64,000 nucleotides of DNA from an uncultured Candidatus Saccharibacteria bacterium (GCA_964517625.1 CAZFBW010000002.1:25893-89892); one strand, 5' to 3'. Shown: positions 1 to 61,528, numbered from the stretch's first letter. Numbers and translations are program-made. Notes: generated by a model not told the origin, from the sequence alone.

Positions 1-248
1 TCGATGAGACTGATGTTCTTTTTGTACCGGTTGGAGGGGACGACACAACGCTTAACCCTTACGACGCGCACAAACTTTCCGTCGCACTTGAACCAAAGCT
101 CATCATTCCGATGGACTATACAGAAAAAACGCTTCCAATTTTCATGAAAGAAGCGGGAGAAAAAACTGCTCCAGTGGAAAAACTTACTATTAAAAAGAAA
201 GATATTGAAAACAAGCTCGGAGAAATCGTGTTATTCCACGAGATGTAA
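1..248 (+). CDS. MBL-fold metal-dependent hydrolase (UPF0173-like), C-terminal fragment truncated by window start
   Basis: Frame-3 translation ...DVLFVPVGGDDTTLNPYDAHKLSVALEPKLIIPMDY...LFHEM, stop TAA at 246-248; resembles C-termini of MBL-fold hydrolases. Confidence 0.45.
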   Translation, partial: DETDVLFVPVGGDDTTLNPYDAHKLSVALEPKLIIPMDYTEKTLPIFMKEAGEKTAPVEKLTIKKKDIENKLGEIVLFHEM

Positions 249-250
249 CA

Positions 251-580
251 ATGAAACTTTCTTTCAAAGCGTACGTTCGGTATCTTCGTAAGCAAAAAGA
301 GCATGTTCAACACGTGCATGCAATTATTTTTGCCGGAGCAATAACACTCCTTCTTGCGGTAGCAATTTTATATATTCAATACGGATACTGGCATGGCTCG
401 TATGAGCGAGCAGAGGTCGTGCAAAACGAGAATGAGACACTCATTACCGAAACCCCAAAAGAAACACTCATACGACTTTTTGGAGAAGGGAAGGAACGTT
501 TTAATCAGGCAATCTCCACACTTTCTCCACTTGAGGGAGGGGAAGTCACGTTTGATAGAAGTGCAACAACCACAAAATAA
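251..580 (+). CDS. hypothetical small membrane protein (one predicted TM helix)
   Basis: 109-aa ORF; hydrophobic stretch IIFAGAITLLLAVAILYI; no recognisable family. Confidence 0.3.
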   Translation: MKLSFKAYVRYLRKQKEHVQHVHAIIFAGAITLLLAVAILYIQYGYWHGSYERAEVVQNENETLITETPKETLIRLFGEGKERFNQAISTLSPLEGGEVTFDRSATTTK

Positions 581-9904: not shown

Positions 9905-10363
9905 TTGTTCTCTGTCTGGAGGTGTTACGTGACTGAAAAATCCGACAAGGTGTATCCGCTTTCTGTTTCCAATCCCGACTCTGGCCACCTAGTTTGGCAT
10001 TCAGTACTTGACGGGAAGTATCTCGTCGAGGTTGTTCGTCCTGTGGTAGTACCTGAAGAACTGAAGATTGCTGTGCCGGATGAGGCACAGTTATCTTCCT
10101 TGCTTTGGTATTGTGGAGAATTGTTCATTTTTGAAAACGCCGAGCCACACACGTTGCTTCACAGGCAAGTTGTGCATCTAGCGTATGGGGCTCAGTTTGG
10201 TCCAGATATGAGTGATGTGTCATTGTGGCAAGATCTTTGCATTGCTTTCATTGACGGCACAATCGATGAGTTTTACATCAACAATCCGGAAATGAAAGAT
10301 TTAACTGTTGAGAGCATTGTCGAAGCAAAAGCCAGCCTTCTCAAAGTACTTAAGGGTTCTTGA
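9905..10363 (+). CDS. hypothetical protein
   Basis: 152-aa soluble ORF; no motif recognised. Confidence 0.35.
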   Translation: MFSVWRCYVTEKSDKVYPLSVSNPDSGHLVWHSVLDGKYLVEVVRPVVVPEELKIAVPDEAQLSSLLWYCGELFIFENAEPHTLLHRQVVHLAYGAQFGPDMSDVSLWQDLCIAFIDGTIDEFYINNPEMKDLTVESIVEAKASLLKVLKGS

Positions 10364-10381
10364 AGAAAAAATAAATATTTC

Positions 10382-10407
10382 AAAGCCGCTAAACAAGGCG
10401 GTTTTTT
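10382..10407 (+). terminator. hairpin plus T6 after the 9905-10363 ORF
   Basis: AAAGCCGC-taaacaag-GCGGTTTTTT. Confidence 0.4.
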
Positions 10408-10433
10408 CTTTTGAGCGGGCCCACAAGGATTCG
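10402..10433 (-). repeat. direct-repeat copy of the tRNA-Trp 3' end plus 3' flank (32 nt, identical to 10558-10589)
   Basis: TTTTTTCTTTTGAGCGGGCCCACAAGGATTCG occurs twice; this copy lacks the rest of the tRNA. Confidence 0.6.
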
Positions 10434-10502
10434 CCTCTCTCTTTGGTCGAGACTTGTAATTTCAACAGCTTGAGTACAAGCTAAGAAATTATGTCGCCTT
10501 CG

Positions 10503-10519
10503 GTTCGAATCCTTGTGGA
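10503..10519 (+). repeat. inverted copy of the tRNA-Trp T-arm/acceptor segment (GGTTCGAATCCTTGTGG)
   Basis: 17-nt exact reverse-complement match to part of the tRNA-Trp gene, 53 nt downstream of the tRNA 3' end. Confidence 0.55.
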
Positions 10520-10557
10520 AAATCCGAGCAAATGAAAAAAGACGCCGAGCAAGCATC

Positions 10558-10589
10558 TTTTTTCTTTTGAGCGGGCCCACAAGGATTCG
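10558..10589 (-). repeat. second copy of the 32-nt repeat; overlaps the authentic tRNA-Trp 3' end
   Basis: Identical 32-mer as 10402-10433. Confidence 0.6.
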
Positions 10590-10642
10590 AACCTTGGTCT
10601 GCGGTTTTGGAGACCGATATACTACCACTGTACTATAGGCCC
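10572..10642 (-). tRNA. trnW: tRNA-Trp (anticodon CCA)
   Basis: Reverse complement GGGCCTATAGTACAGTGGTAGTATATCGGTCTCCAAAACCGCAGACCAAGGTTCGAATCCTTGTGGGCCCG; loop CUCCAAA; 7-bp acceptor, T-arm CAAGG/CCTTG, G73; no encoded CCA. Confidence 0.8.
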
Positions 10643-10778
10643 GTGTCGGGTTATTCTAGCATATAATTGCCGAGATTAAACGATGTTCTTGTGAGTGTTA
10701 GAATTTAATGGTAGAGTGATTTTTGTCAGCACAACACCAACACGCTGACGTTGTACTTTGTTGGAGAGGGAGGACTAT

Positions 10779-10946
10779 ATGGGAAAACCATATACGATTC
10801 CATCATATCGGGAAGACCCGGCGTTCTACGATGATTGCATTCTAAACTACATCCGAGAGCTTGCATGGCTTGAGGATCAGGTGACGCTTGCATCAACGCA
10901 GAAGCCATCTCTTTCTGATTATGATGGCGAAACACCCGAGGAGTAG
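10779..10946 (+). CDS. hypothetical small acidic protein
   Basis: 55 aa from the ATG preceded by a strong SD GGAGAGGGAGG (unusual in this window); sits next to the tRNA-Trp repeat region. Confidence 0.3.
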   Translation: MGKPYTIPSYREDPAFYDDCILNYIRELAWLEDQVTLASTQKPSLSDYDGETPEE

Positions 10947-11162: not shown

Positions 11163-11684
11163 ATGCAAAAAGTATTTATAAGTTCTGTGCTCATAGCGGG
11201 AACATTCCTGGTTGTTTCCGCAGAGGAGGGGGTTCGCCCAACGCCAATTAATGCTCCAACACAAGCAGTGAGAGCAATTAAAGCAGTTCTTGCTACGAGT
11301 ACTCGTCCAGCAATGATGCTTGAAGACGGTGTTCCACTAACTGGTGACAAGACGGTTGATGATAAAATCAAGGCGCTTGTTAAGGCAAGAAATGAAAAAT
11401 TAAAAGCGGTTCACGATGCCTTCCAAGCAGAACTTAAGACTCTCATCGGTGAAAGAAAGTTGTTGCAAGCATCAACTACCCCAGCGAAGAGGTATGAAAT
11501 GCAAGACAGGATGATGAATGCATCAGGAACACCTGTTCGTCCTCCGGTTGCATCAGGAACGCCGATGCGTTTAGAAGATAAGCGTCCGCCAGTTCAACAG
11601 GCGCCCAAAAACATATTTAGGAGATTCTTTCAATCTTTTTTGGGGGTAAATCCTCAGGAATTGCAAGCAGAAGAAGTTCGCTAG
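11163..11684 (+). CDS. hypothetical secreted protein (signal peptide, Pro-rich C-terminal half)
   Basis: MQKVFISSVLIAGTFLVVSA signal peptide; 173 aa. Confidence 0.4.
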   Translation: MQKVFISSVLIAGTFLVVSAEEGVRPTPINAPTQAVRAIKAVLATSTRPAMMLEDGVPLTGDKTVDDKIKALVKARNEKLKAVHDAFQAELKTLIGERKLLQASTTPAKRYEMQDRMMNASGTPVRPPVASGTPMRLEDKRPPVQQAPKNIFRRFFQSFLGVNPQELQAEEVR

Positions 11685-29617: not shown

Positions 29618-29670
29618 CCCGTTTCGGCGGATTCTAGTTTTCTGCTAGAATGTGTAAGTTAGAAAAATAT

Positions 29671-29745
29671 GCAGTGGTAGCCCGAGAAGCTTGGCTTCGA
29701 AGGTGTCCGTAGCTACCAAGCGAAGGGCGCAGCTGGTTCGAAGAA
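29671..29745 (+). pseudogene. tRNA-Asp 5' fragment interrupted by a 45-nt palindromic insertion (pseudo-tRNA)
   Basis: Begins GCAGTGGTAGC (identical to tRNA-Asp nt 1-11), then a 45-nt insertion with GAAGCTTGGCTTC palindrome, then GCGCAGCTGGTTCGAAG (D-arm-like); lacks anticodon and T arms; preceded by a duplicated promoter motif AATGTGTAAGTTA. Confidence 0.3.
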
Positions 29746-29782
29746 GGGTTGTAAAAGTGAGTCGGTGTACAAAATATAATAT

Positions 29783-29856
29783 GCAGTGGTAGCTCAGCTG
29801 GTTAGAGCACCGCCCTGTCACGGCGGGGGTCGTGGGTTCAAGTCCCATTCACTGCG
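29783..29856 (+). tRNA. tRNA-Asp (GUC)
   Basis: GCAGTGGTAGCTCAGCTGGTTAGAGCACCGCCCTGTCACGGCGGGGGTCGTGGGTTCAAGTCCCATTCACTGCG; anticodon loop CUGUCAC; G73. Confidence 0.8.
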
Positions 29857-61249: not shown

Positions 61250-61528
61250 GCCAATGTAGCTCAGTTGGTAGAGCACGTCCATGGTAAATCGCATAGATTT
61301 TGCCCACACAGTCAGTAATGATTTTGTGAATCCCGAATAACGGTTAATAGCCAAACATAGGCCAAGACCGTGGCAGTGAGATGGTTTTATTTCACGGCCC
61401 GAACGACTGACAAGGGTATCCATTTTGTATGGATAAAGATACAGTCTAGCCCCCACATATGTGTTTTTAATAAATTGGGGTGAAAGCGAAGGACGAGGTC
61501 ATCGGTTCAATCCCGATCATTGGCTCCA
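61250..61528 (+). tRNA. tRNA-Thr (GGU) interrupted in the anticodon loop (between nt 36 and 37) by a 203-nt intron; CCA encoded
   Basis: Exon1 GCCAATGTAGCTCAGTTGGTAGAGCACGTCCATGGT (61250-61285) plus exon2 AAGGACGAGGTCATCGGTTCAATCCCGATCATTGGCTCCA (61489-61528) join into a perfect 76-nt cloverleaf: 7-bp acceptor, CGTCC/GGACG anticodon stem, loop AUGGUAA. Confidence 0.75.
61286..61488 (+). ncRNA. group-I-like self-splicing intron within tRNA-Thr
   Basis: 5' exon ends in U and the intron ends in G (omega-G); R-like AACGACUGACAAGGG and S-like AAGAUACAGUCUAGCC give a compensatory P7 pairing GACUG/CAGUC; 3' hairpin CCCCC...GGGG; no ORF inside. Confidence 0.55.

Follow-up and report, generated by a model that had tools for sequence, protein, structure and literature searches.

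We studied the tRNA-Trp locus within a single window, by which we mean the whole 64-kb stretch of DNA that was analyzed (of Patescibacteria/Paceibacterota type, approximately 42% GC). The genes around it run in the order GlyRS, two hypothetical genes, L33 (9686-9847), a 144-aa ORF, tRNA-Trp (minus strand), a 55-aa ORF, a secreted 173-aa ORF, ComF (minus strand) and PilM. An earlier note on this DNA had described the tRNA-Trp without giving its strand; ARAGORN and Rfam both find the gene, on the minus strand. The features of the locus, in window coordinates, are:

9929-10363, plus strand: 144-aa acidic ORF between L33 and tRNA-Trp, convergent with the latter
10382-10405: T2, a terminator hairpin common to the module described below and the convergent 144-aa ORF (terminator scan; paralogue of T1 through a 52-nt repeat at 85%)
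10402-10433, minus strand: distal direct-repeat copy, consisting of X (10415-10433, the 3' strand of predicted helix P1) and a copy of the trailer (10402-10414)
10434-10501, minus strand: 68-nt interior with a P2/P3 hairpin at 10457-10491 (TAATTTC..AGCTTG-TACT-CAAGCT..GAAATTA) and a short P4
10502-10518, plus strand: X' (GGTTCGAATCCTTGTGG), antisense to the tRNA, whose positions 50-66 it copies in inverted form
10524-10574: T1, a bidirectional, terminator-like hairpin of an A-tract and a T-tract (arms 10524-10545 and 10553-10574, 82% complementary) that starts in the last tRNA bases
10558-10589, minus strand: proximal direct-repeat copy (tRNA positions 54-72 plus 13 nt of trailer)
10571-10642, minus strand: tRNA-Trp (anticodon CCA) with no encoded CCA end (ARAGORN; Rfam tRNA, 67.2 bits)
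10653-10661, minus strand: extended -10-like box TGCTAGAAT, read from the sequence, 10 nt upstream of the tRNA-Trp 5' end

We gathered 25 related loci (cited below by numbers of the form L001) via L33, the 55-aa ORF, the 144-aa ORF and the tRNA sequence, with genome and metagenome pattern scans contributing one locus each. The 55-aa ORF (10779-10946) and the secreted ORF (11163-11684), which had been suggested as possible remnants of inserted DNA, proved to be conserved core genes: both are syntenic in L001 and L005, as are ComF and PilM, and because these two loci carry neither the module nor its repeats, the ORFs are not inserted DNA. The 144-aa protein has no match in Pfam, PHROG or NCBIfam, and its AlphaFold model is poor (pLDDT 64) and gave no fold match. 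Its family, represented by three database homologues and by L023/24, occurs only between L33 and tRNA-Trp in a few Paceibacterota and has two invariant motifs (YCGEL.IF and RQVVHL). This ORF is an old neighbor of L33, kept in the window, L003, L004 and L023/24 and lost elsewhere, and its presence is uncorrelated with that of the module. The box TGCTAGAAT is probably a promoter that travels with tRNA-Trp; it was not called by a consensus promoter scan, and a tgcTAGAAT box likewise precedes tRNA-Trp in L003, L001 and L025, in either orientation of the tRNA.

Relative to L33, tRNA-Trp is co-oriented in most relatives (L003, L005, L006, L010-14 and L020-25), whereas in the window, L001/2, L004 and L007/8 the tRNA is flipped along with its promoter-like box and trailer; L001 and L005 differ by a 212-nt inverted block, and tRNA-Trp marks a synteny break among the relatives. 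The block that flips, with respect to both L33 and the 55-aa ORF, comprises the promoter-like box, tRNA-Trp and the trailer (window 10571-10700; L005 1396-1607; L001 3208-3420), and its breakpoints show only weak, T-rich inverted similarity. In L008 (30-70), an insert of approximately 35 nt separates the tRNA-Trp 5' end from the promoter-like box, with a short GCCCGT(G)TC duplication on both sides.

The 32-nt direct repeat that the earlier note had reported was recovered by a repeat search: the copies at 10402-10433 and 10558-10589 are identical, are spaced 156 bp apart, and hold tRNA positions 54-72 (T-loop C to 3' end) followed by 13 nt of the 3' trailer. At 85% identity the repeat extends to 52 nt (10382-10433 and 10538-10589). 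The inverted copy of the T-arm is also real, but its coordinates are 10502-10518 and not 10503-10519, as had been given; this 17-mer is complementary at 17 of 17 positions to the tRNA (10577-10593) and at 13 of 13 to the distal direct copy (10421-10433), and a 17-mer with at most two mismatches is expected 0.00 times by chance in the window (100 shuffles). Read in the direction of the tRNA, the order is thus tRNA, T1 (10574-10524), X' (10518-10502), the 68-nt interior (10501-10434), X and trailer (10433-10402), and T2 (10405-10382), with 124 nt and no ORF between the direct repeats; the module does not occur again in the 64 kb. Similarity to the tRNA stops abruptly, at position 54 in the sense copy and at positions 50 and 66 in the antisense copy, and neither ARAGORN nor Rfam finds a second tRNA; both results speak against a tRNA pseudogene or a decayed second tRNA-Trp.

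These parts are predicted to fold together at -39.8 kcal/mol (z score -5.6 against shuffled controls). X' and X close the fold as helix P1, in which the 13 bp of X' with X have as their alternative 17 bp of X' with the 3' half of the tRNA; when the full read-through transcript was folded, X' paired with the tRNA 3' half, which abolishes the cloverleaf and leaves a long hairpin tipped by T1. The 13 identical trailer bases fall outside P1, and the 32-of-32 identity that includes them looks like the result of recent duplication or gene conversion, not of selection for pairing. The 68-nt interior is no copy of nearby DNA. T1 was missed by the terminator scan because its T-run sits inside the stem, and the consensus promoter scan called no promoter belonging to the module itself.

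The same arrangement in related lineages

The same architecture lies behind tRNA-Trp in three other Paceibacterota lineages (L010/11, L020-22 and L025), and our sample consists of five distinct copies from four lineages, the window included. The module has no ORF and measures approximately 125-190 nt (the window copy is 10382-10574). The copies of the tRNA end lie at the following offsets from the end of the tRNA:

Window: antisense copy +53..69; sense copy +138..156
L010/L011: antisense copies +56..64 and +338..346; sense copies +142..160 and +426..436
L020-22: antisense copy +82..90; sense copy +178..193
L025: antisense copy +73..83; sense copy +174..183

Behind the tRNA of L010/L011 come T1, an antisense copy (CACAAGGAC..) and, after an interior of 70 nt, a sense copy of 19 nt (CGAGTCCTTGTGGGCCCGC), beyond which lies flanking DNA; a second copy of the module, L010-B, lies approximately 280 nt further along in L010. 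L020-22 and L025 realize the same plan with their own, differing tRNA-Trp sequences, and the antisense part in L020 and L025 directly adjoins the T1 descending arm and extends right up to the end of the tRNA. X' follows the local T-arm in every lineage (GGATTCG in the window, GGACGAG in L010, GGAGAATCGAA in L020 and GGAGGAATCGAA in L025). X likewise follows its own tRNA in the window, the first L010 copy (L010-A) and L020; in L025, X differs by one T-stem base, and X' fits the tRNA better than it fits X. The distal copy begins at the T-loop CGA in the window and both L010 copies and near it in L020 and L025, and the repeat runs into the lineage-specific trailer (for 13 nt in the window and 7 nt in L020). 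Predicted folding is comparable in L010-A (z score -5.2), L010-B (-4.3) and L020 (-4.3) and weak in L025 (-1.8). Hairpins homologous to T1 occur in L006/L013 and twice in L010, where T1 is a near-perfect palindromic hairpin (approximately 19 bp) followed by a T-run; L013 and L006 carry T1 with a collapsed copy of the module. The module is absent from L001/2, L004, L005, L012/14 and L023/24, L005 and L001/2 being the closest relatives of the window.

The orientation of the module relative to the tRNA is constant, even where the promoter-tRNA block is inverted relative to L33. Variation in tRNA orientation among relatives, and the inverted block that separates L001 from L005, could suggest that X' is the relic of an ancestral plus-oriented tRNA-Trp that has since flipped. 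We rejected this explanation as scarcely credible: L010, L020 and L025, which have the ancestral orientation, carry the antisense fragment in the same relative position, and the similarity stops abruptly on both sides of the 17-mer.

The earlier note had interpreted the duplicated tRNA end as an att-like mark and the locus as, among other possibilities, a decayed or excised insertion scar, and had named a conserved arrangement with no insertion polymorphism among related loci as the outcome that would speak against this. What we found is the conserved arrangement, which recurs in three other lineages with compensatory substitutions (described below), together with variable presence of the DNA between the repeats, so that only one half of that outcome is seen. 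The classical form of the explanation, a phage or island integrated at tRNA-Trp by a tyrosine integrase and later deleted down to its two ends, would account for the regenerated tRNA, for the displaced direct 3' fragment that starts in the T-loop, and for the synteny break at tRNA-Trp. Independent internal deletions, however, would not yield the same architecture of 125-170 nt in four lineages, and compensatory changes of base pairs would not be expected of double-stranded att arms. The neighboring ORFs are core genes, and the search for a tyrosine integrase that had been proposed revealed no remnant of one: Pfam assigned no integrase, recombinase or transposase domain to the ORFs of 150 aa or longer in the 64-kb window, all of which are housekeeping or domain-less, and no integrase or recombinase was found in the 2.5-kb flanks of the relatives. 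We therefore regard a classical scar as very improbable and have high confidence that the locus holds a conserved structured module instead; the geometry of the displaced fragment and the presence-absence variation are what survives of the att-like interpretation.

Compensatory change, gain and loss

The interior in the window is homologous to L010 3291-3392, and in its comparison with L010-B (81% identity) 26 pairs are 94% paired, with six double-sided changes (for example, TAATTTC/GAAATTA versus CGATTTC/GAAATCG, and AGCTTG/CAAGCT versus AGTCTG/CAGACT) against zero to one in slid controls. Between L020 and L025, 38 pairs are 93% paired, with four double-sided changes and four one-sided changes, all of the latter giving G.U on the tRNA-sense strand. 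Ten double-sided compensatory changes are thus seen in total, with P2 and P3 never disrupted, in what are two pairwise comparisons, because there are only five distinct copies from four lineages. The helices are kept by compensatory and G.U-preserving substitutions on the tRNA-sense strand, and this strand also folds better than the antisense strand in eight of nine units. We infer that the element is functional and folds as a single strand in the sense of the tRNA.

Identity in the module is similar to or higher than that in the L33 region (81% versus 79% for the window and L010, and 83% versus 75% for L020 and L025); the module therefore diverges no faster than its flanks, which favors long-term retention over recent transfer. 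When a covariance model was built from two of the copies, it recovered L010-A (E = 6e-7) and no further copy in the window or in the other loci, indicating that the module is not a dispersed repeat.

Several of these observations bear on whether the arrangement could be a functionless by-product of replication or repair, in which the tRNA 3' end was copied, first inverted and then direct, through fold-back or a template switch at T1, and quasipalindrome correction kept X' matched to the tRNA. Template switching at inverted repeats gives rise to rearrangements of the form duplication, inverted copy, duplication, and the module resembles these in its sense-antisense-sense order around a central terminator palindrome. 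The direct junction of the antisense copy to T1's descending arm in L020 and L025, the extension of the repeat over the trailer and part of the terminator (the 52 nt at 85%), and a comparable case elsewhere in the window, the 16-nt partial duplication at the tRNA-Asp 5' end, are also what such a process would be expected to leave. The module differs from template-switch rearrangements, however, in having a unique, covarying interior that is conserved across lineages and matches no nearby DNA, and in having the same boundaries in all four lineages; the ten double-sided changes and the flank-like divergence of the module likewise argue against neutrality, and we consider the explanation improbable.

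The module has been lost, collapsed or duplicated in single lineages by events bounded by the repeat of the tRNA end. An exact filled and empty pair is given by L010, in which the tRNA is followed by 141 nt, a 19-nt repeat and then CAAAATAAGGAG, and L013, in which CAAAATAAGGAG follows the tRNA directly. L010 further contains two tandem, paralogous copies, of which the newer lies beside the tRNA. L010/11 and L012/14 are 100% identical over 1062 nt upstream and diverge from T-loop position 57, beyond which their downstream genes are entirely different (in the L012/L014 allele the tRNA end is followed by CAAAATAAAAAAGTTTTAGCAC and a Ham1 gene), and TTCGA is where the Logan unitig L018 ends; with no upstream differences to go by, the point of divergence sets only an upper bound on the crossover. 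For the window copy there is no clean empty site, because L001 and L005 differ from the window over the whole spacer between L33 and the tRNA. We conclude that the module is gained or lost at the tRNA-end repeat, because close relatives lack it, L010 has two copies and the T-loop repeat forms its boundary.

A possible trailer RNA or recombination site

We interpret positions 10382-10574 of the window as a single copy of the conserved, structured module that a group of Paceibacterota has at the 3' end of tRNA-Trp. Our preferred reading, which we advance tentatively, is that the module specifies a 3'-trailer RNA in the sense of the tRNA. Read-through of T1 would produce this RNA, and T2 would end it; the pairings of X' with the tRNA and of X' with X would be alternative states that affect the fate of read-through tRNA-Trp precursors; and the direct repeat would be a working part of the structure, incidentally a substrate for deletion and duplication, and not the footprint of a vanished island. 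We prefer this reading because the one-sided changes are G.U only, the sense strand is favored in folding, the co-orientation with the tRNA and its promoter is fixed, and the divergence resembles that of the flanks. The presence of a terminator downstream of the module also favors it. Against it stands the dispensability of the module, which is missing from the closest relatives (L005 and L001/2) and from L012/14 and L023/24. The module may be little transcribed, because T1 resembles an efficient terminator.

Compensatory change and tolerance of G.T are also expected of a site that folds as single-stranded DNA. The module might alternatively be a miniature, non-autonomous cassette, mobile now or in the past, that enters the T-loop of tRNA-Trp by site-specific recombination, regenerates the tRNA 3' end and brings T1 with it, the hairpin of X', interior and X serving as the recombination site in single-stranded DNA and the recombinase being supplied in trans. 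We regard this as possible but doubtful. The start of the distal copy at or near the T-loop CGA in all copies, the exact boundaries of the L010 and L013 pair, the reach of the repeat into the lineage-specific trailer, and the exact identity over 32 nt, trailer bases outside P1 included, would all follow from it, as would a structure better conserved than its sequence. The split at T-loop position 57 between contigs of the same strain that are 100% identical upstream (with a unitig ending there) and the tandem L010 copies, the newer beside the tRNA, fit a recombination-driven, mobile element, with the reservation that the split bounds the crossover from above only. Less easily reconciled with a cassette are the lack of any integrase or recombinase in the 64 kb and in the 2.5-kb flanks of the relatives, the single copy per window, and the fact that copies from different genomes are no more alike than the flanking genes, which gives no hint of a recent transfer. 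Viral contigs scanned for exact matches to the repeat, the interior and the L010 junction yielded no attP, and one viral-contig match to the tRNA end was rejected as an attP, being a complete tRNA-Trp within a phage tRNA array. Neither the window nor the 25 related loci nor the viral contigs yielded a cognate autonomous element that combines an integrase with matching att sites, and we know of no precedent for a circle of 125-170 bp that carries only a terminator. The two readings, trailer RNA and integrative cassette, are not mutually exclusive.

The integron attC site and the attP(+) hairpin of CTXphi are recombination sites that fold in single-stranded DNA. The module is like them in having two inverted core copies tens of bases apart, a structure conserved beyond its sequence, the order of inverted copy, spacer and direct copy at the distal end of the insert, and newer copies placed beside the target. 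It differs in that the attC core motifs (RYYYAAC and GTTRRRY), a dif-like site, an IntI-like ORF and phage genes are all absent, its stem consists of tRNA sequence (CCACAAGGATTCG/CGAATCCTTGTGG), its target is the tRNA T-arm, and its 'cargo' is a terminator only. The sRNA sponge 3'ETS-leuZ of Escherichia coli is an example of a functional tRNA 3' trailer; the module is similarly non-coding, directly 3' of a tRNA and co-oriented with it, and possibly released by tRNA processing, and it differs in being separated from the tRNA by a terminator and in containing both sense and antisense copies of the tRNA. With permissive thresholds, Rfam 15 scored nothing but the tRNA in the window and six loci, apart from a spurious match to a miRNA hairpin at E <= 1.

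Partial tRNA duplications are routinely taken as integrase footprints and used to delimit genomic islands. Automatic island callers would misread this locus, because the tRNA-duplication signature here belongs to a tiny, conserved, covarying module with no genes. Islands and prophages integrated at tRNA genes, with att duplication by a tyrosine integrase, have been catalogued by Islander (PMC4383910). The module shares with these an intact, regenerated tRNA, a displaced direct 3' fragment that runs from a tRNA loop past the 3' end, and a synteny break; it differs in having 124 nt between its repeats and no integrase, cargo or attP partner, in holding an internal antisense copy of the core, and in having an interior that is structurally constrained and as old as the flanking genes. 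CIMEs are cis-mobilizable, att-flanked stretches of DNA that lack recombination genes (PMC5704250). The module resembles them in being ORF-less, in its att-like direct repeats beside a tRNA, and in its tandem accretion in L010, whereas a CIME is what remains, on the kilobase scale, of an ICE or IME whose integrase is known, and the module is approximately 0.15 kb long, has a conserved fold and has no cognate element that we could find. A literature search found this general att and CIME framework and no counterpart of the module. What is known, then, is the signature of a regenerated tRNA with a displaced fragment; what is new is a gene-less module of approximately 0.15 kb whose fold is closed by copies of the tRNA and which belongs to no Rfam family.

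If the module acts as RNA, it would be a new family of tRNA-linked non-coding RNA in Patescibacteria, with an antisense copy of its own tRNA inside it; should it act as DNA, no smaller cassette that targets a tRNA would be known, and the module would add to the examples of recombination sites in folded single-stranded DNA. Either way, tRNA-Trp is a hot spot of small-scale rearrangement in these reduced genomes, through inversion of the tRNA block and through gain, loss and duplication of the module.

Other structured units near tRNA genes

Further small units were seen near tRNA genes in the window and its relatives. Upstream of tRNA-Asp there is an exact 16-nt direct repeat (AATATGCAGTGGTAGC, window 29666-29681 and 29778-29793, plus strand), consisting of the first 11 nt of the tRNA with five upstream bases; its copies are 112 nt apart, and between them lie a short antisense piece (AGCTACC), a stretch resembling a D-arm and another promoter-like box. 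The arrangement is the 5'-end mirror image of that at tRNA-Trp. The same upstream unit contains a 20-mer (CGAGAAGCTTGGCTTCGAAG, window 29683-29702) that forms a small hairpin flanked by tandem G.A, and CGAGAAGCTTGGCTTCGAAG is identical to part of a hairpin unit, H2, found at tRNA-Trp in relatives (L020 3121-3138; L010 3190-3207; L005 at approximately 1600-1690).

The H1/H2 hairpin units stand directly behind tRNA-Trp in L005 (1532-1700), L010 (3115-3235), L013 (2042-2110), L020 (2944-3230) and L001 (3197-3286, reverse); they are absent from the window and have no Rfam match. Their closing stem is TATTTTTGC...GCAAAAATA, in which GCAAAAATA repeats the last GC of the tRNA with the A-rich trailer, so that sense and antisense pieces are combined as in the module. 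The inner stem, whose loop is G-TAAT-C, shows compensatory substitutions (GCAACCG/CGGTTGC against GCAATCG/CGATTGC). A leader peptide with a Trp codon in the H1 unit was rejected, inspection by eye showing that TGG is not conserved. The sequence shared between the tRNA-Asp and H2 units suggests that small structured units found at different tRNA genes belong to one family. It is also conceivable, although we consider it rather unlikely, that there is an undescribed class of structured, tRNA-attached elements in Patescibacteria, each with a multi-hairpin fold closed by an antisense and a sense copy of its host tRNA's end, that switch between pairing with themselves and pairing with the tRNA. They would act as regulatory or quality-control trailer RNAs, or as self-folding recombination sites through which gene-less cassettes of 0.15 kb enter tRNA T-loops while encoding no recombinase; the tRNA-Asp and H1/H2 units would then be members of the same system as the module.

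Between the L33 terminator and tRNA-Trp, a region of approximately 150-190 nt in L013 (1810-1967), L012 (1560-1703) and L006 (298-480, reverse) has long-range closing stems (GTTGGAGG...CCCTCCAAC and GTCGGAGGGGA...TTTCCTTCGAC). This region, which is not present in the window and has no Rfam match, may be a structured RNA upstream of tRNA-Trp. Elsewhere in the window (61250-61528, plus strand), a tRNA with an ambiguous anticodon is split by an insert of approximately 200 nt in its anticodon loop, the 5' part being GCCAATGTAGCTCAGTTGGTAGAGCACGTCC.. (61250 to approximately 61282) and the 3' part ..GGACGAGGTCATCGGTTCAATCCCGATCATTGGCTCCA (approximately 61486 to 61528, with CCA encoded). ARAGORN does not report this gene, and Rfam gives a sub-threshold tRNA match only, with no intron family; the insert may be a new or divergent tRNA intron.
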